Virus record (IMG/VR): IMGVR_UViG_2751185972_000009
Span: 1 to 5,870 of that record
Length of the DNA: 5,870 nt
Origin: a virus
Taxonomy: Duplodnaviria > Heunggongvirae > Uroviricota > Caudoviricetes
Reading direction: 5' to 3' (one strand)
The notes under the pieces were generated by a model, which worked only from the letters and a program-made list of their open reading frames with translations, did no database searches and was not told the DNA's origin. Each line of letters starts with the position of its first letter. The first letter of the stretch is position 1. This document shows positions 1 to 5,870 of the stretch, piece after piece. Both the position numbers and the translations under genes were made by a program.

Positions 1-322
1 TTTTCCAGAGGCGGTCGAACTCCGCCTTCGCAAAATAAGCGGAAGCCTGGCGAAGGATATCGTTACTGCGGCGCAGTTCACGATTTTCACGTTCCAGCTC
101 TTTCAGACGCTGACGTTCAGCGGTGGTGAGCCCGCCATCACCGCCTCCGGTATCCCGCTCATGCTGGCGTACCCAGACACGCAGAGTCTCCGGTGTACAG
201 CCAATCTTTGGGGCAATGGAACAAATTGCCGCCCACTGTGAGTCATATTCGCCCTGACTTTCCAGAACCATACGAATCGCCCTCTGACGGACTTCGGGGG
301 AAAAACGAGTATTTTTAGTCAT
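1..322 (-). CDS. IS3-family transposase OrfA (HTH, leucine-zipper region), truncated by the window edge
   Basis: ATG at 322..320 on the - strand; a plausible RBS (AGAGGTAAACAGG) is 5' of it on that strand. The frame stays open to position 2; its C-terminal ...[20 protein letters not shown] lies where the IS3-family OrfA/OrfB frameshift window normally sits. Confidence 0.8.
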
Positions 323-376
323 CCTGTTTACCTCTTTCTCAGGGAGTTTAGTCTCCAGGATTCCCGGGGCGGTTCA
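1..376 (-). mobile_element. IS3-family insertion sequence (IS629-like), partial; terminus inside window at 376, element continues past the left edge
   Basis: The - strand encodes an OrfA-like product ([42 protein letters not shown]...[35 protein letters not shown]) that I recognise as IS629/IS3-group OrfA. + strand 358..376 is the reverse complement of the remembered IS629 terminus TGAACCGCCCCGGGAATCC, giving a TG...CA-type end at 376. Confidence 0.8.
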
Positions 377-550
377 GTTAGTCATTACCGCATTGTGTGT
401 TTGCAAAAAAATGGGGCTGCGTTAATTAATTTTGTGGATGCCCGAGTGACGGACGGATTTATCTTGCGCGACGGTGAGTTTGTCACTTCATTACAGGCAT
501 TGAAAGAGATCGGAATAAAAGCTGGCTTTTCTGCTTTTTCAGAAGAATAA
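377..550 (+). pseudogene. 5'-truncated ORF remnant (C-terminal 57 codons) abutting the IS terminus
   Basis: The frame starting at 377 is open with no stop from the IS boundary to TAA at 548..550 (...VSHYRIVCLQKNGAALINFVDARVTDGFILRDGEFVTSLQALKEIGIKAGFSAFSEE*). It has no start codon or RBS of its own, consistent with a gene interrupted by the IS insertion. Confidence 0.4.
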
Positions 551-616
551 ACTCATCTACAATCTTGCGCGGGGCTGAACTCCCGCTGAGTAACACCGTG
601 CCACCGGAGAAAACCG

Positions 617-895
617 ATGGCACGCAACGCAAAATATTACAATCATGATAATTCGACCGTTCTTGCCCACACGCACGAGCGGTATTCTCATGCATTTAAG
701 TCAGACTGGTACCAGCATCCCCCATGCACTGAAGAACAGGCCGATTGGCTCATTCAGTGTTACCGCAGGCGCGGATGCGAGGTTAAAAAAGCCCTTAGCC
801 TCGACTACCGTCACTGGATAATCTCCGTCAGGCTCCCTTACTCCGAACGGCCACCGCGTCCGTCCCGCACATTCCAGCAACGTATCTGGAGGTAA
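617..895 (+). CDS. hypothetical small protein (92 aa), first gene of the nin-like operon
   Basis: ATG at 617 preceded by GGAGA (604..608). The stop TAA at 893..895 overlaps the RBS of the next gene, suggesting translational coupling. No family recognised. Confidence 0.4.
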   Translation: MARNAKYYNHDNSTVLAHTHERYSHAFKSDWYQHPPCTEEQADWLIQCYRRRGCEVKKALSLDYRHWIISVRLPYSERPPRPSRTFQQRIWR

Positions 896-896
896 C

Positions 897-1943
897 GTGC
901 GGGTATTACTTCGACCTGTTCTGGTACCGGAACTCGGGCTGGTGATCGTTAAGCCGGGCCGTGAATCCATGCCGGTATTCCACAATACCCGGGTACTGGT
1001 GGAGCCGGAACCGAAAAGCATGCGTAATCTGTCGTCCGGGGTCGTTCCTGCCGTTCGCCAGCCGCTGGCGGAGGATAAATCATTACTGCCATTTTTCAGC
1101 GACGAACGAGTGATTCGTGCTGCTGGTGGCGCTGGCGCATTGTCTGACTGGTTACTGCGCCATGTTAAATCCTGCCAGTGGCCACACGGCGATTATCACC
1201 ACAGTGAAACCGTCATTCACCGTTATGGTACCGGCGCAATGGTGTTGTGCTGGCACTGCGACAACCAGCTGCGCGACCAGACCTCCGAATCACTCGGGCA
1301 ACTTGCTCACCAAAACCTGTCTGCATGGATGATTGACGTCATACTCCATGCAATGAATGGCTCGCAGGAACGGGAATTATCGCTGGCTGAATTATCCTGG
1401 TGGGCGGTCCGCAATCAGGTGGCGGACGCGCTACCGGAAGCGGTATTACGTCGTTCGCTGGGGTTGCGTGCGGAAAAAATCCGCTCAATGTACCGTGAAA
1501 GCGACATCGTACCGGGAGAGCAGACCGCCACCAGCATACTGAAGCAGCGCACAAAAAATCTTGCGCCGCTGTCTCACGCCCACCAGCAAAACCCGCCACA
1601 GGAAGAGACGGTGGTCAGCATTGCCGTTGATCCTGAGTCTCCGGAATCTTTCATGAAACGACCTAAACGTCGCCGCTGGGTTAACGAGAAATACACACGC
1701 TGGGTGAAGACACAGCCGTGTGCGTGTTGTGGTAAGCCAGCCGACGATCCCCATCACCTGATTGGTCATGGTCAGGGCGGAATGGGGACAAAATCTCACG
1801 ATATTTTCACGCTACCGCTGTGTCGGGAGCATCACAACGAGCTTCATGCGGATCCTCTGGCGTTCGAAGAAAAGCATGGTTCTCAGGTTGATTTAATTTT
1901 TCGTTTTCTTGATCACGCCTTTGCAACTGGCGTGCTTGGGTAA
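897..1943 (+). CDS. DUF968/YdfU-like prophage protein with C-terminal Cys/His cluster (HNH/zinc-finger-like)
   Basis: 348-aa ORF with GTG start at 897 and GGAGG at 888..892. The C-terminus (CACCGKPADDPHHLIGHGQGG...LPLCREHHNELH) has CxxC...HH...N...H spacing typical of HNH-type motifs. Size and position (upstream of rusA and Q) match YdfU-like proteins of lambdoid prophages. Family assignment is from memory; the start could instead be ATG 969 or 1020. Confidence 0.7.
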   Translation: MRVLLRPVLVPELGLVIVKPGRESMPVFHNTRVLVEPEPKSMRNLSSGVVPAVRQPLAEDKSLLPFFSDERVIRAAGGAGALSDWLLRHVKSCQWPHGDYHHSETVIHRYGTGAMVLCWHCDNQLRDQTSESLGQLAHQNLSAWMIDVILHAMNGSQERELSLAELSWWAVRNQVADALPEAVLRRSLGLRAEKIRSMYRESDIVPGEQTATSILKQRTKNLAPLSHAHQQNPPQEETVVSIAVDPESPESFMKRPKRRRWVNEKYTRWVKTQPCACCGKPADDPHHLIGHGQGGMGTKSHDIFTLPLCREHHNELHADPLAFEEKHGSQVDLIFRFLDHAFATGVLG

Positions 1944-1955
1944 AAGAGGTGACTG

Positions 1956-2330
1956 ATGCTCATAGATTTGGTTTTACCTTACCCGCCGACGGTGAACACT
2001 TACTGGCGACGCCGTGGCAGCACATATTTTATCTCGGAGGAGGGAAAGCGTTATCGCCGGGCTGTGGCGCTTATTGTTCGCCAGCAGCGGCTGAAATTAA
2101 GCCTGTCCGGAAGGCTGGCGATAAAGGTGATTGCAGAGCCACCGGATAAGCGTCGTCGCGACCTGGACAATATTCTGAAAGCACCACTGGATGCGCTGAC
2201 GCATGCCGGACTTCTCATAGACGACGAGCAGTTTGATGAAATCAATATTGTGCGCGGTCAGCGCGTTCCTGGGGGGCGGCTGGGCGTGAAGATTTACCCC
2301 ATAATGCTTGAAGGGCAGGTCAAAAAATGA
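1956..2330 (+). CDS. rusA: RusA-family Holliday junction resolvase (crossover junction endodeoxyribonuclease)
   Basis: 124 aa with strong SD AAGAGGTG upstream. Motifs LPYPPTVNTYW, PDKRRRDLDN, LIDDEQ and GGRL align with the remembered E. coli RusA (LPWPPSNNRYY, PDRRRRDLDN, WLDDAQ, GGRL), including the catalytic Asp residues. Confidence 0.88.
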   Translation: MLIDLVLPYPPTVNTYWRRRGSTYFISEEGKRYRRAVALIVRQQRLKLSLSGRLAIKVIAEPPDKRRRDLDNILKAPLDALTHAGLLIDDEQFDEINIVRGQRVPGGRLGVKIYPIMLEGQVKK

Positions 2331-3148
2331 AACTGGAAGATTTACCGAAATACTACTCCCCAAAATCCCCCGGCCTGACTGATGCATCGGCCTCAACGTC
2401 GAAAGATGCGCTGAGTATCACTGATGTGATGGCCGCGCAGGGCATGACACAGAATCGGGCTGAGATGGGGTTTTCTGCGTTCCTTGGGAAAATGGGCATT
2501 AGTATGAATGACAGAGAGCGGGCAACAGAATTGCTGACAGAATATGCACTCAGTCGGTGTGATCGCGTGGCGGCGTTAAGAAAACTCCCGGCAGAAATAA
2601 AACCGGCAGTGATGCGTATTATGGCTTCGTATGCGTTTGAAGATTATGCCCGTAGCGCGGCGAGCAAAAAACAGTGCTCCTGCTGTCACGGAAAAAAATT
2701 TATTGAAAGCGAGGTTTTTACAAACAAGATCCAGTATCCGGATGGTAAGCCGCCGGTATGGGCAAAGTGTACGAAAGGTGTGTATCCGTCTTACTGGGAA
2801 GAATGGAAAAAAGTCAGGGAGGTGGTAAAAGTTGCCTGTCCGGAGTGTGGCGGAAAGGGTGAGGTTTCCACCGCCTGTAAGGATTGCCGTGGGCGTGGTG
2901 TCGCCATTCATCGTGAAGAGTCGGTAAAACGTGGTATGCCTGTTATCAGAGACTGCCAGCGTTGTGGTGGTCGTGGCTGTGAAAGACTACCATCAACGGA
3001 GGCATTTAATGCCATATGCAAAGTGACGAGTGCTATCACGCTTGATACGTGGAAAAAATCAGTGAAACGCTTTTACGATACGTTGGTGGTTCGGTTTGAC
3101 ATTGAAGAGGCATGGGCGGAGCGGCAGTTAAAGAGGGTAACGCGATAG
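2327..3148 (+). CDS. Q: Late-gene antiterminator Q (lambda-type), long variant with four CxxCxGxG-like motifs
   Basis: ATGA overlap with the rusA stop. The N-terminus (YYSPKSP...ITDVMAAQGM...GFSAF.GK) and C-terminus (MASYAFEDYARSAA...RFYDTLVV...RVTR) are colinear with lambda Q (FHSPKSP...TDVMAAMGM...ATFAYADYCRSAA...PLYDALVV...AVTR). The central region carries CSCCHGKK, CPECGGKG, CKDCRGRG and CQRCGGRG. Confidence 0.9.
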   Translation: MKLEDLPKYYSPKSPGLTDASASTSKDALSITDVMAAQGMTQNRAEMGFSAFLGKMGISMNDRERATELLTEYALSRCDRVAALRKLPAEIKPAVMRIMASYAFEDYARSAASKKQCSCCHGKKFIESEVFTNKIQYPDGKPPVWAKCTKGVYPSYWEEWKKVREVVKVACPECGGKGEVSTACKDCRGRGVAIHREESVKRGMPVIRDCQRCGGRGCERLPSTEAFNAICKVTSAITLDTWKKSVKRFYDTLVVRFDIEEAWAERQLKRVTR

Positions 3149-3153
3149 TGTTG

Positions 3154-3205
3154 TTGATTTTTCCCGAATCTGTGGTAAATTTGCTCTAACGATGGGCGTT
3201 TTATG
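3154..3205 (+). promoter_or_regulatory. Late promoter pR' with Q-utilisation (qut)/pause region
   Basis: -35 TTGATT (3154..3159), 16-nt spacer, -10 TAAATT (3176..3181), then tgctctaACGATGGG. This is near-identical to the remembered lambda pR' region (GGTAAATTtgactcaACGATGGG), so the predicted TSS is A3189. It lies directly downstream of Q, as in lambdoid phages. Confidence 0.75.
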
Positions 3206-3230
3206 CCTGACGTTAGAAGATTTTTTACAC

Positions 3231-3252
3231 CCCGCCGCCTGGCGGGTTTTTT
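3231..3252 (+). terminator. Intrinsic terminator (tR'-like) about 45-65 nt downstream of the pR' start
   Basis: Stem CCCGCC (3231..3236) pairs with GGCGGG (3241..3246), 4-nt loop, followed by T6 (3247..3252). Confidence 0.65.
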
Positions 3253-3374
3253 ATGACTGAAATCGCGTCAGTATAGTAAACGCGCTGGTGGCGGTGAATA
3301 CCTGTCTTTCAGCTTGCTGGCTTTTTCGACAAGAGTTATTGGTGTGTCACGTTAACCGGAAAAGGGAAAAAGAC

Positions 3375-3572
3375 ATGCTAAAACAGCAGGATATGACAGA
3401 AACCGCCAGAGTGGTGTTTAATGAATTAAGCGTTACCGAACCGGCGACAGTCGGGGAGATAGCGCAGAATACTTACCTTTCACGCGAACGCTGCCAGTTA
3501 ATACTGACCCAGCTGGTTATGGCGGATCTGGCAGACTATCAGTTCGGTTGTTACAGACGCCTTCCGCAGTGA
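3375..3572 (+). CDS. small winged-helix-like DNA-binding protein (65 aa), family unverified (pattern reminiscent of PapI/FaeA-type regulators)
   Basis: ATG 3375 preceded by AGGGA (3363..3367). Product MLKQQDMTETARVVFNELSVTEPATVGEIAQNTYLSRERCQLILTQLVMADLADYQFGCYRRLPQ. The 94-aa version in the ORF track starts at GTG 3288 without an RBS, so the shorter start is preferred. Confidence 0.55.
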   Translation: MLKQQDMTETARVVFNELSVTEPATVGEIAQNTYLSRERCQLILTQLVMADLADYQFGCYRRLPQ

Positions 3573-3583
3573 AGGCTTTTTTA
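3559..3583 (+). terminator. Intrinsic terminator overlapping the stop codon of the small ORF
   Basis: GCCTTC (3559..3564), loop cgcagt, GAAGGC (3571..3576), followed by TTTTTTATTT. Confidence 0.6.
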
Positions 3584-3598
3584 TTTGTGGTAATGGGC

Positions 3599-3627
3599 GC
3601 TGGTGGGTGTTAGGGGCACCCACCAGC
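3599..3627. promoter_or_regulatory. Perfect 11-bp inverted repeat (stem-loop or operator) in the methyltransferase leader
   Basis: GCTGGTGGGTG (3599..3609), 7-nt loop, CACCCACCAGC (3617..3627), all 11 pairs Watson-Crick, no T-tract after it. A second palindrome CTGCTTTgcgcAAAGCAG lies at 3670..3688. Confidence 0.4.
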
Positions 3628-3720
3628 CATCTGCTCATGCGTTGGGTTCACAAGCAAACCTCAGGCCCACTGCTTTGCGCAAAAGCAGAATGAGCCTATC
3701 AGAGACAGGCTTAATGATCC

Positions 3721-4770
3721 ATGCTTAATACTGTAAAAATATCCAGTTGTGAGTTAATCAACGCCGACTGCCTGGAATTTATCCGGTCGTTACCCGAAAA
3801 TTCTGTTGACCTGATAGTCACGGACCCGCCGTACTTTAAAGTGAAGCCTGAGGGCTGGGATAACCAGTGGAAGGGCGACGATGATTACCTGAAGTGGCTG
3901 GACCAGTGTCTGGCGCAGTTCTGGCGGGTGCTGAAACCTGCCGGAAGTCTTTACCTGTTCTGTGGTCATCGCCTGGCATCTGATATCGAAATCATGATGC
4001 GTGAACGCTTCAGTGTGCTGAACCATATTATCTGGGCGAAGCCGTCCGGACGCTGGAACGGATGCAACAAGGAAAGCCTGCGGGCGTATTTCCCCGCCAC
4101 AGAGCGCATTCTGTTCGCGGAACATTATCAGGGGCCGTATCGTCCGAAAGATGCCGGGTATGCGGCGAAGGGCAGTGCACTGAAACAGCATGTGATGGCC
4201 CCGCTGATTTCTTACTTTCGTGATGCGCGCGCGGCCCTGGGGATAACGGCAAAACAGATTGCAGATGCCACAGGAAAGAAAAACATGGTGTCGCACTGGT
4301 TCAGTGCCAGTCAGTGGCAGCTACCGAACGAAAGCGATTATCTGAAATTACAGTCGCTGTTTGCCCGGGTGGCAGAAGAGAAACATCAGCGCGGTGAACT
4401 GGAAAAGCCCCACCACCAGCTGGTGGATACGTATACGTCACTGAACCGGCAGTATGTGGAGCTGCAGAGTGAATATAAGCATCTGCGGCGGTATTTTGGT
4501 GTGACGGCGCAGGTGCCGTACACGGATGTGTGGACACATAAACCGGTGCAGTTCTATCCCGGGAAACATCCGTGCGAAAAACCGGCAGAAATGCTGCAGC
4601 AGATAATCAGCGCAAGCAGTCGTCCGGGTGACCTGGTTGCAGATTTTTTTATGGGCTCAGGTTCAACGGTAAAAGCGGCACTGGCGCTCGGGCGTCGTGC
4701 GATTGGCGTTGAGCTGGAGACCGGACGTTTTGAGCAGACAGTCAGGGAAGTTCAGGATTTAATCGTTTGA
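3721..4770 (+). CDS. DNA methyltransferase, beta-class (motif IV DPPY N-terminal to motif I FxGxG); probably N6-adenine, possibly N4-cytosine; no cognate restriction gene in window
   Basis: 349 aa. DLIVTDPPYF near the N-terminus and DLVADFFMGSGSTVKAA near the C-terminus. This order of motifs defines beta-class amino-MTases. No endonuclease-like ORF is adjacent. Confidence 0.85.
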   Translation: MLNTVKISSCELINADCLEFIRSLPENSVDLIVTDPPYFKVKPEGWDNQWKGDDDYLKWLDQCLAQFWRVLKPAGSLYLFCGHRLASDIEIMMRERFSVLNHIIWAKPSGRWNGCNKESLRAYFPATERILFAEHYQGPYRPKDAGYAAKGSALKQHVMAPLISYFRDARAALGITAKQIADATGKKNMVSHWFSASQWQLPNESDYLKLQSLFARVAEEKHQRGELEKPHHQLVDTYTSLNRQYVELQSEYKHLRRYFGVTAQVPYTDVWTHKPVQFYPGKHPCEKPAEMLQQIISASSRPGDLVADFFMGSGSTVKAALALGRRAIGVELETGRFEQTVREVQDLIV

Positions 4771-4819
4771 AACGGATGAGATTGCAGAATTAATTACGCA
4801 CCATTATTATTCTGCTCCC

Positions 4820-4895
4820 GGCCCTTTAGCTCAGTGGTGAGAGCGAGCGACTCATAATCGCCAGGTCGCTGGTTCAAATCCAGCAAGGGCCACCA
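4820..4895 (+). tRNA. ileZ: tRNA-Ile2 (anticodon CAU, lysidine type; AUA decoding)
   Basis: Manual cloverleaf: acceptor GGCCCTT/AAGGGCC, D-arm GCTC-AGTGGTGA-GAGC, anticodon loop CTCATAA, T-arm GCTGG-TTCAAAT-CCAGC, discriminator A, encoded CCA. Near-identical in design to E. coli ileX. The symbol follows Stx-phage nomenclature recalled from memory. Confidence 0.85.
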
Positions 4896-4904
4896 TATCA
4901 CATA

Positions 4905-4981
4905 CCACCATTAGCTCATCGGGATAGAGCGCCAGCCTTCGAAGCTGGTTGCGCGGGGTTCGAGTTCTCGATGGCGGTCCA
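4905..4981 (+). tRNA. argN: tRNA-Arg (anticodon UCG)
   Basis: Manual cloverleaf: acceptor CCACCAT/ATGGCGG (one A:C mismatch at 3:70), D-arm GCTC-ATCGGGATA-GAGC, anticodon stem CCAGC/GCTGG, loop CTTCGAA, T-arm CGGGG-TTCGAGT-TCTCG (two G:U), encoded CCA. Confidence 0.75.
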
Positions 4982-4995
4982 TTTATCGGTATTCT

Positions 4996-5039
4996 GCGTT
5001 GTTAGCTCAGCCGGACAGAGCAATTGCCTTCTAAGCAGC
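4996..5039 (+). pseudogene. tRNA-Arg (anticodon UCU) 5' fragment: acceptor 5' strand, D-arm and anticodon arm only
   Basis: GCGTTGT-TA-GCTC-AGCCGGACA-GAGC-A-ATTGC-CTTCTAA-GCAGC is a good 5' two-thirds of a tRNA. I could find no T-arm (no 5-bp stem around a 7-nt loop in 5036..5080) and no acceptor 3' strand (ACAACGC-like) anywhere downstream in the window. Confidence 0.5.
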
Positions 5040-5187
5040 TGTGGTTGCACTCCTGTTGTTTCTGGTGGTGATGGTGGACTTCAGCAGCCGGATAATGTCG
5101 GTGCTGTCTGATGGTGTTTTGGTGGCGGGTGTGTGGTTGTTGCTTTCCCGTTGCTGAAAAAGAAAGCATCAGGCGATTAGCAGGGTA

Positions 5188-5386
5188 TCAGTTACCCGTT
5201 GAAATTTTTAAATACCTCACAATTCCACAGCTTGATGATTGTCTGGCTGCCGGAGAATTTGTTAAAAATTACATCGCATGGTGAATCCCCCTCAGCGGCG
5301 GGGCATCTGGCAAAGTGTATGATCCAGAGAACATGCAAATTCAGTAGACAGGCTGAATTTACCGGGAGGCCCCTGGCACCATGCGA
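5188..5386 (+). repeat. Copy 1 of a ~200-bp diverged direct repeat with conserved stem-loop architecture (candidate structured RNA or leader); core 5276..5384
   Basis: Aligns with 5656..5852 at roughly 70% identity. Shared blocks: CAGTT..CCCGT, ATTGTCTGGC, TTTGTTAAAAA, GCATGGTGAATCCCCCT, CTGAATT(T/C)ACCGGGAGGC, CACCATGC. GCATGGTG (5276..5283) is the reverse complement of CACCATGC (5377..5384). Confidence 0.6.
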
Positions 5387-5412
5387 CAGACAGAAATTAG
5401 GCTATACTTCAG

Positions 5413-5435
5413 CCCCTCTCCGGAGGGGCTTTTCT
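5413..5435 (+). terminator. Intrinsic terminator-like hairpin downstream of repeat copy 1
   Basis: CCCCTC (5413..5418), loop tccg, GAGGGG (5423..5428), then CTTTTCT. Confidence 0.5.
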
Positions 5436-5489
5436 GTGCAGGATGTGTCACAGTTTCCTGAATTCTGAGTACTGTCCTGTTACTCAGGG

Positions 5490-5498
5490 TGCTATATT
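5490..5498 (+). promoter_or_regulatory. Candidate extended -10 promoter (TGcTATATT) between the two repeats
   Basis: TGn + TATATT at 5490..5498. A perfect 7-bp inverted repeat CTGAGTA/TACTCAG (5465..5487) overlaps the -35/spacer position. No good -35 hexamer. Confidence 0.3.
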
Positions 5499-5623
5499 TT
5501 CTGACGTGATGAAAGTCTGCCGGAAGGCGGAACGTATCGGAAATGACCCAGTAGAGAAAACGTTGACTCAGATACCGATGCTGAGTTACCGGGAAACCGG
5601 CATCACATGACCGCTATCCTTCC

Positions 5624-5648
5624 AGGCTCGCTCCGGCGGGCCTTTTTA
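5624..5648 (+). terminator. Intrinsic terminator upstream of repeat copy 2
   Basis: AGGCTCGC (5624..5631), loop tccg, GCGGGCCT (5636..5643; 8 bp including one G:U), followed by TTTTT. Confidence 0.55.
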
Positions 5649-5655
5649 CTGCAGA

Positions 5656-5852
5656 AAACAGTTTTCCCGTAAAATGCCACGTTGCTCATAATTCAGGCTG
5701 GCGATTATTGTCTGGCCGGCGGGAAGTTTGTTAAAAAATTTCGCATGGTGAATCCCCCTGTGCGGAGGGGTAATCAGCGAGTAGGTATATGGGATAATCG
5801 CGGATTCAGGTGCTGGTACTGAATTCACCGGGAGGCACCCGGCACCATGCAA
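5656..5852 (+). repeat. Copy 2 of the ~200-bp diverged direct repeat; core 5743..5850
   Basis: Same conserved blocks as copy 1. GCATGGTG at 5743..5750 and CACCATGC at 5843..5850. Hairpins P2 (CCCCT/AGGGG), P4 (GGATTCAG/CTGAATTC) and P5 (CCGGG/CCCGG) are at equivalent positions. Confidence 0.6.
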
Positions 5853-5870
5853 TGGCACATAGCGCCACTC

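Follow-up and report, generated by a model that had tools for sequence, protein, structure and literature searches.

A predicted Q-dependent late module of lambdoid prophages: an M.EcoGII-type methylase with a conserved structured leader RNA and a dedicated winged-helix neighbour

How does a lambdoid prophage hold back an enzyme that is dangerous to its host, and how does it release this enzyme during lytic growth? This question is raised by a stretch of DNA of 5,870 nucleotides (nt) (positions 1 to 5,870 of the IMG/VR virus record IMGVR_UViG_2751185972_000009; hereafter the window, meaning the whole stretch), which carries the gene of a DNA methyltransferase (methylase) of the M.EcoGII type, preceded by a small gene encoding a protein of 65 amino acids (aa). 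Enzymes of this type have been described in the literature as lacking sequence specificity, as silent in lysogens and as toxic (PMC5778455; PMC12707154), and no description of how phages silence and release toxic M.EcoGII was found in the literature searched. The present analysis points, with a probability of about 0.6, to a late module in which the methylase would be transcribed in a Q-dependent manner, insulated by terminators and gated at the level of translation, with a winged-helix protein as accessory. The new element of this module is the leader RNA of the methylase, which together with its dedicated winged-helix neighbour is a candidate for the missing control of M.EcoGII.

A methylase and a dedicated small gene behind a lambda-type late promoter

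The two genes (the smaller is called below the small open reading frame, ORF) and the signals around them are the following:

2327..3148, + strand: antiterminator Q, lambda-Q family, with an inserted zinc-ribbon region (Pfam Antiterm, E=1e-49; PDB 7UBM, lambda Q, E=3e-39)
3153..3192, + strand: late promoter pR' (-35-like TTGATT at 3153-3158; -10 TAAATT at 3175-3180)
3187-3192, + strand: pause element of pR', -10-like AACGAT (alignment with lambda; predicted start near 3187)
3231..3252, + strand: intrinsic terminator tR', left edge of the mobile module (6-bp all-GC stem followed by TTTTTT)
3313..3350, + strand: conserved non-coding block CTTGCTG-N12-AGAGTTAT..TGTGTCAC, 25-60 nt 5' of the small ORF
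3375..3572, + strand: 65-aa winged-helix protein, PHROG 331 (ATG start; likely ribosome-binding site AAGGG at 3362-3366)
3559..3582, + strand: second intrinsic terminator/hairpin (6-bp stem followed by TTTTTTATTT), whose stem-loop encloses the stop codon of the small ORF
3587..3720, + strand: structured leader RNA of the methylase, ~130 nt (RNAalifold consensus, covariance model)
3721..4770, + strand: beta-class N6-adenine DNA methyltransferase of the M.EcoGI/M.EcoGII family, 349 aa, intact (Pfam N6_N4_Mtase, PF01555, E=2.3e-44)

The methylase gene is intact, and it encodes a protein in which the DPPY motif (codons 35-38, 3823-3834) precedes the FxGxG motif (FMGSG, codons 310-314, 4648-4662), which is the beta-class order. 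The protein is identical to M.EcoGII (GenBank EGT69837.1; sequence in the supplement of the SUPREM paper, PMC11551740) at 331 of 350 positions, an identity of ~95% that is approximate since the comparison sequence was machine-read and contains reading errors. Furthermore, phage 1720a-02, which has been named as a carrier of an enzyme very similar to M.EcoGII (PMC5778455), shows 94.8% nucleotide identity with the window. M.EcoGII itself is a beta-class prophage enzyme of 349 aa that methylates adenine whatever the surrounding sequence (Murray et al. 2018, PMC5778455); it is silent in the lysogen, makes cells sick when it is constitutively expressed, is active alone in vivo and in vitro, and also methylates RNA (PMC5778455). 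Homologues at 92-94% similarity have been listed as non-specific (PMC6602927), and the methylase of the window is probably non-specific for sequence context as well. With an enzyme of this type, no particular target motif is expected, so that counting such a motif in the leader, as the initial annotation had proposed, is moot. This prophage-borne gene has Q, the small ORF and tRNA genes as neighbours, and is solitary since no gene for a partner restriction endonuclease is adjacent. The initial annotation had seen in it a late-expressed orphan methylase that would protect progeny DNA from restriction; orthology with M.EcoGII supports this reading, which is right but already published. Residues 167-195 of the enzyme (4219-4305) give a weak match to the Xre-type helix-turn-helix (HTH) model HTH_3, under its threshold (E=0.031; in ALGITAKQIADATGKKNMVSHW), and this region may be a DNA-contacting element of an enzyme without a defined target-recognition domain.

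The small ORF is a real gene: it is under strong purifying selection (median ratio of nonsynonymous to synonymous substitution rates, dN/dS, of 0.064 at a dS of ~1.2), and its helix 3 segment RCQLILTQL is invariant as protein with variable codons. Its product matches PHROG 331 (function unknown) at E=1.3e-36. The winged-helix fold, which had initially been guessed from a residue pattern, is confidently predicted by AlphaFold run with an alignment (predicted local distance difference test, pLDDT, of 92.3; the run on the single sequence was uninformative, with a pLDDT of 52). The closest structural neighbours are repressors of the ArsR, MarR, IclR and TrmB types, and the neighbours also include RPA32C and the winged-helix dimerisation domains of O-methyltransferases that depend on S-adenosylmethionine (SAM). 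The Pfam TrmB HTH model (PF01978) scores 15.1 bits (E=0.02) for a cut-off of 25.6 bits, and therefore indicates a generic winged-helix resemblance only; some members of the family have been named TrmB family by RefSeq. NCBIfam contains no model for the small protein, and searches of PDB sequences with the protein or its profile returned nothing useful. The window copy has two cysteines (C40 and C58), of which only C40 is invariant, and no zinc site. More distant phages carry at the equivalent position an ORF of ~77 aa with a like residue pattern. An iterated hidden Markov model (HMM) built from the close family missed these ORFs; profile-profile comparison (hhalign probability 90.7%, E=1.3e-6) and iteration from the distant side, which merged both sets, identify them as remote homologues. 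By contrast, orf-64 of lambda, located at the same position after tR', was rejected as a homologue. Codon 51 of the small ORF (3525-3527) encodes Asp in the window (MADL) and Gly in more than 90% of the homologues (MAGL); E. albertii and many genomes of E. coli have the MADL allele as well.

The juxtaposition of the two genes is not due to chance. Among the 24 species-level loci found via the small protein, 22 carry the methylase (59-100% identical) at a fixed distance of 142-154 nt after the stop codon of the small ORF, and the two exceptions are a contig end and a truncated remnant. Reciprocally, the small ORF is present in 74 of the 75 viral contigs found via the methylase. The linked pair occurs in Escherichia, Salmonella, Kluyvera, Klebsiella, Citrobacter, Buttiauxella, Proteus, Mangrovibacter, Mixta, Plesiomonas and other genera. 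The small-protein family, seen only beside this methylase family, is narrow (59 clusters at 50% identity among 1.8 billion representatives) and consists of two clades, with recombination between them. E. coli prophages carry the module very often, the pair being found in 2,017 of 5,426 complete E. coli genomes (37%, with at least 80% of the query covered). Up to 7 places matching the module were observed per E. coli genome, presumably one per lambdoid prophage.

The position of the intact pair between pR'/tR' and the tRNA genes, as initially annotated, was confirmed. In an alignment of the DNA that follows Q, the blocks GGTAAATTTG and AACGATGGG, which correspond to the -10 element and to the sigma-dependent pause element, are identical in the window and in lambda pR'; a simple consensus scan did not flag this promoter (8/12 matches). 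The start site and the pause are those predicted from lambda. The locus therefore has the components of a lambda-type Q-dependent late unit: (i) a Q homologue, (ii) a pR' promoter with a -10-like pause element, and (iii) a terminator after it. By homology with lambda, the pair should be read only by Q-modified RNA polymerase. A terminator hairpin is retained at the position of tR' across genera despite sequence variation. The second terminator (3559-3582), which was absent from the initial annotation, is a hairpin conserved with compensatory changes in other genera, its T-run being strong only in the clade of E. coli phages. Since a ribosome ending the small ORF would cover this hairpin, termination there could depend on translation of the small ORF. 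Between the two terminators, the non-coding block at 3313-3350 is nearly invariant in 17 genus-level loci and its flanks diverge; it was a poor match in a sigma-70 promoter scan, and could be an operator, a weak promoter or an activator-dependent promoter.

The borders of the module are indicated by comparison with other phages. Homology with phiP27 and with most records of Shiga toxin (Stx) phages begins at tR' (position 82-83 of the query 3150-4800). The gene located 5' of the pair varies among loci, and the onset of homology is the tR' hairpin regardless. Therefore, the mobile unit comprises the terminator, the small ORF, the hairpin, the leader and the methylase.

The leader RNA of the methylase

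No ordinary Shine-Dalgarno sequence precedes the methylase gene. The leader is the best-conserved DNA of the module, above the flanking ORFs, whose synonymous sites are saturated. It comprises the following parts:

3593-3598, + strand: segment 1
3599-3627, + strand: P1 hairpin
3633-3639, + strand: segment 2
3644-3655, + strand: segment 3
3664-3696, + strand: inner hairpin
3709-3720, + strand: segment 4, the 12 nt before the AUG

The consensus obtained with RNAalifold contains a long P1 hairpin with a basal extension, and a second domain in which (G/A)GGUCA-C-AAGC (3644-3655) pairs with GCUU-AN-UGAUC(C/U) (3709-3720), this helix enclosing the inner hairpin. Several unpaired stretches are also highly conserved. 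The minimum free energy of the leader of the window itself has a z-score of -3.67, and the many G-U pairs assign the structure to the + strand. A covariance model detected the leader in 80 of 100 sources, in every case directly adjoining the methylase. The leader also occurs in divergent phages, which were retrieved with a divergent methylase as query and have methylases 55-70% identical to it. In the covariance-model alignment, compensatory changes occur in 25 of the 34 pairs, and paired cells amount to 90.8%, compared to 29-42% in slid controls; none of 500 shuffles attains these values.

Since this alignment was fitted to the model, the count was repeated on an alignment of 49 diverse sequences made with MAFFT only. 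In this alignment, (i) the 1:2 pairing is present in 95.9% of the cells, with mostly single changes (U-A to U-G or G-C to G-U), (ii) the 3:4 pairing shows AU<->GC and GC<->AU exchanges in 13 cells each, and (iii) the 2:3 pairing, which is mutually exclusive with the two others, shows CG<->UA exchanges in 16 cells, double changes being frequent in these last two helices. Segment 3 thus covaries with both of its possible partners, which is the signature of a switch.

A degenerate pattern derived from the leader alone, for which no protein was used, retrieved 117 sites in viral contigs, and the methylase lies directly after 111 of them; the six remaining sites are at contig ends (n = 3) or rearranged (n = 3). 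Several unusual arrangements were observed in individual loci: two same-strand copies of the leader located 3 kb apart in one viral contig (L326; 375-422 and 3361-3408), a breakpoint within P1 accompanied by the loss of the small ORF (L063; 3866-4018), a leader fused to a methylase remnant made up of its last ~67 codons (L278), a leader separated from the methylase by ~300 nt (L366), and a leader pattern without methylase (L322). The leader has no match in Rfam at E<=1 in a search over the window, and a search of 3150-3760 at E<=10 gave noise only (at most 20 bits, compared to cut-offs of at least 36 bits). Descriptions of the leader or of the small ORF were not found in the literature searched.

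In the first six codons of the methylase (3721-3738; AUG..AAnACUGUAAA), conservation includes the synonymous positions and extends to distant phages, which suggests an RNA-level constraint reaching into the coding region. No conserved pairing partner was found for these codons; a pairing with the P1 hairpin holds in Proteus phages and fails in E. coli, and was rejected. Three other features of the region were also discarded. The small ORFs located within the leader (3603-3728 on the + strand and 3498-3638 on the - strand) are disrupted as candidates by 1-nt indels between homologous leaders. The motif CAGAGTTA, shared by the regions 5' of both genes, was dropped as a candidate repeated operator, its leader copy lying in a variable loop and being absent from the clade of the window. 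Lastly, the conserved GATC before the ATG of the methylase is not retained as a Dam site, since divergent members have another sequence there and the site is part of an RNA helix that covaries.

How the methylase could be held back and released

We propose that lambdoid prophages carry at this locus a mobile module of late genes, which would make a dangerous enzyme only in lytic growth. Methylation of adenine in any context would render progeny DNA resistant to many restriction systems, and uncontrolled expression of the methylase would harm the cell, as expected from the established biology of M.EcoGII. Two layers of control are envisaged. The first is transcriptional: the module lies behind a lambda-type pR' and would be insulated by tR' (3231-3252) and by the terminator at 3559-3582. 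In a lysogen, the constitutive transcript from pR' would stop short, and readthrough would be achieved only by RNA polymerase modified by Q, as established for lambda. The second layer would be translational: the 12 nt before the AUG (3709-3720) can be paired with 3644-3655, segment 3 can alternatively pair with segment 2 (3633-3639), and segment 2 with segment 1 (3593-3598). The leader, whose structure is shown by covariation, would therefore act as a 1:2 / 2:3 / 3:4 switch that gates initiation at the methylase. The winged-helix protein, as a dedicated accessory of the methylase, would most likely set the state of the leader or otherwise tune methylase expression; by analogy with the Com protein of phage Mu, discussed below, it may be the factor, or one of the factors, that sets the leader.

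Several points weigh against this proposal. The likeness to M.EcoGII has the approximate value given above. The largest covariation count comes from the alignment that was fitted to the model, and the counts from the MAFFT-only alignment are weaker (74-75% paired, compared to 31-46% in slid controls). In the clade of the window, the 2:3 helix has two central mismatches and keeps 5 of 7 pairs. The small-protein family is mostly acidic (isoelectric point of 4.8 for the window protein and median of 5.6 for the family), which counts against a simple DNA- or RNA-binding role. M.EcoGII is active by itself, so that catalysis needs no partner. Finally, the small ORF is present in 65 of 79 non-redundant leader-bearing loci; the 14 others have a leader that is still typical, so that this RNA can function where no copy of the small ORF lies beside it.

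The same observations bear on other explanations. The small protein could be a conventional DNA-binding transcription factor that acts on an operator of the module (for example the block at 3313-3350) or on host or phage promoters, the leader being independent. This would agree with the repressors found among its nearest structural neighbours, with the weak TrmB match and the RefSeq name, with the invariance of helix 3 and with the presence of a conserved non-coding block directly 5' of its gene. However, the protein amounts to just a core domain of 65 aa and lacks a dimerisation element, its family is acidic, its TrmB score is under the cut-off, and no inverted repeat or repeated motif robustly common to the upstream block and the leader was found in the clade of the window. 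We therefore consider such a role unlikely.

Alternatively, the small protein could act at the protein level, as an inhibitor, antitoxin or targeting subunit of the methylase, or as a neutraliser of host defence systems that sense DNA heavily modified with N6-methyladenine (m6A), such as Type IV enzymes, and the leader would be a separate cis element. The strict co-occurrence with the methylase, with no life elsewhere, would fit this explanation, and the acidity of the protein is more in keeping with binding to proteins or mimicry of DNA than with binding to nucleic acids. RPA32C-like stand-alone winged helices and O-methyltransferase dimerisation domains are among its structural neighbours, and m6A-dependent restriction enzymes that cut M.EcoGII-modified DNA exist (PMC11037411). 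This role is nevertheless doubtful given that the methylase is fully active alone (PMC5778455), that no fusion of the small protein with the methylase occurs among the homologues listed in database searches, and that the 14 loci mentioned above manage without the small protein.

A third possibility is that the leader is a self-contained sensor, namely a metabolite riboswitch (responding for example to SAM or S-adenosylhomocysteine), a site that the methylase itself binds or methylates as feedback, or a folding trap set by the speed of the Q-modified polymerase, and that the small protein is not involved. Loci without the small ORF that keep a typical leader (e.g. L249, 156 bits) argue for this possibility, as do the conserved unpaired stretches, which resemble those of ligand-binding RNAs, the alternative pairings, which are typical of riboswitch expression platforms, and the ability of M.EcoGII to methylate RNA (PMC5778455). 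Yet the leader matches no known riboswitch family, no ligand is indicated, and there is no known precedent in enterobacterial phages, which makes a sensor of this kind quite improbable.

Finally, the initial annotation had likened the small protein to PapI/FaeA-type co-regulators, which would form with the methylase a heritable methylation-sensitive switch through Lrp-like binding to methylatable sites; such a switch is very improbable, and refuted as far as family membership is concerned, since the small stand-alone winged helix and the adjoining adenine methylase that recall PapI are outweighed by the lack of a match to Pfam FaeA (PF04703) at E<=1, by a PDB-sequence profile search that does not find PapI at E<=10, by the lack of special closeness to PapI among the structural neighbours, by a non-specific methylase that leaves no discrete site to toggle, by GATC sites that are not enriched (2 sites in 572 nt, compared to 2.2 expected) and of which the conserved one is explained by RNA pairing, and by a context of lytic late operon rather than of phase-variable fimbrial promoter, with no fimbrial or Lrp component. 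Thus, late anti-restriction and the winged-helix fold are what stands of the initial interpretation.

M.EcoGII is a textbook phage "master key" against restriction and a widely used tool (chromatin footprinting, protein-DNA mapping, RNA methylation), and the leader may offer a natural off-switch for its safe expression. A conserved RNA whose alternative pairings covary, accompanied by a small protein dedicated to the module, would form a compact, directly testable system of translational control of a late gene. In addition, many Stx2 phages carry the module immediately between Q and the genes of Shiga toxin, and the transcript that continues into stx therefore includes the terminators and the leader of the module.

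Prophage context and comparison with known systems

The window originates from an Stx-less lambdoid prophage of E. coli, of which it covers the Q-to-tRNA stretch. Many human and animal isolates are 100% identical to the window over positions 377-5870. In one of them, the late region is preceded by early genes of the dicB/ydfABC type, hokD, rem, a gene for a DUF968 protein, RusA and Q, and Q is followed by genes annotated as "hypothetical protein" and "DNA-methyltransferase", two tRNA genes, and lysis and head genes. The small ORF and the methylase are also found between Q and tRNAs/stx in phiP27 (L23/L24), in phage 1720a-02 and in many Stx2a, Stx2c and Stx2d phages. The right end of the analyzed locus is formed by phage tRNA genes (ARAGORN, Rfam tRNA and RefSeq annotation):

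4820-4895, + strand: tRNA with a CAU anticodon (tRNA-Ile in RefSeq)
4905-4981, + strand: tRNA-Arg (UCG)

These genes are followed by a decayed third tRNA (4996-5062), whose 5' half is identical to tRNA-Arg (UCU) of the Stx2a phage EH1910; its T-arm and 3' acceptor end have been lost or changed, and it is not called by ARAGORN. Three tandem copies of the STnc100 small RNA family lie 3' of the tRNAs, at 5246-5439 (138 bits), 5475-5650 (30 bits, under the gathering score) and 5715-5870 (102 bits, clipped by the end of the window). At the left end, positions 1-376 are part of an IS3-family element, with a match to the ALIL frameshift pseudoknot on the minus strand (1-41, 43 bits, clipped by the end of the window). 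Since the 100%-identical genomes listed match only from position 377, the IS3-type insertion is specific to the present prophage copy.

The late control of lambda and of Stx phages (PMC6266700, PMC7547250) is the closest counterpart of the transcriptional layer: the Q proteins are homologous, the -10 and pause elements are identical, and lysogens should make only a short transcript that ends at the terminator. The window differs by the lack of stx, by the additional zinc-ribbon insertion of its Q, and by the second terminator and the putatively gated leader that precede its first long late gene. Q has 273 aa here, compared to 207 aa in lambda, and the extra part contains CxxCxGxG repeats resembling the zinc finger of DnaJ (DnaJ_CXXCXGXG-like, E=4.5e-6, under the Pfam cut-off).

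For the enzyme, the counterparts are M.EcoGII and M.EcoGI from E. coli O104:H4 C227-11 (PMC5778455), with which the methylase shares its length, ~95% identity, the order of its beta-class motifs and a prophage location. M.EcoGII has been published as silent in the lysogen, toxic, and likely turned on upon induction for broad anti-restriction (PMC5778455). However, the literature checked on this enzyme mentions neither a winged-helix ORF nor terminators nor a structured leader.

Two families of small regulators show partial likenesses with the small protein. PapI and FaeA are also small stand-alone winged-helix proteins connected with adenine methylation, but they have no detectable sequence relationship with it and belong to another genomic context, and a non-specific methylase offers no discrete methylation sites. 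The controller (C) proteins of restriction-modification systems are likewise small regulators encoded 5' of a gene that is lethal if expressed prematurely. However, these Xre-type HTH dimers, whose fold is unlike that of the window protein, bind C-boxes and control an endonuclease, whereas the window has no endonuclease gene and no C-box-like repeat was seen in the module.

The com-mom operon of phage Mu provides the nearest functional parallel to the putative translational layer. In Mu, the 62-aa Com binds a hairpin beside a structure that inhibits translation, and thereby releases the translation of a toxic adenine-modifying enzyme (PMC6483171, PMC3299994). In FluMu, which has a com-like gene, the position of mom is held by Hin1523, a non-specific adenine methylase of the alpha class (PMC6483171, PMC3299994). 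Both Mu and the window have a gene for a protein of ~60 aa immediately 5' of the gene for a toxic, broad-range adenine-modifying enzyme with a late function, and the translation start of the enzyme, which in Mu is buried in an inhibitory RNA structure beside a hairpin, would be buried likewise in the window. However, Com is a Cys4 zinc finger whereas the window protein is a winged helix without zinc site; the leader of the window is longer (~130 nt), with several helices and a three-way alternative pairing; and its transcription would proceed by lambda-type Q antitermination, whereas that of Mu involves C, Dam and OxyR. The anatomy of the leader is thus analogous, and RNA binding by the small protein is putative. 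Going one step further, the leader could be a new class of cis-regulatory RNA switch for M.EcoGII-type genes, flipped by a new kind of winged-helix translational regulator and spread in prophages of Enterobacterales and beyond, which would make it a functional analogue of Mu Com/mom built from unrelated parts; we put this forward tentatively, the complete set of claims being rather less probable than its failure. Since the parts found in the window are unrelated to Com, the module would in any case work like com-mom rather than be a member of that system.

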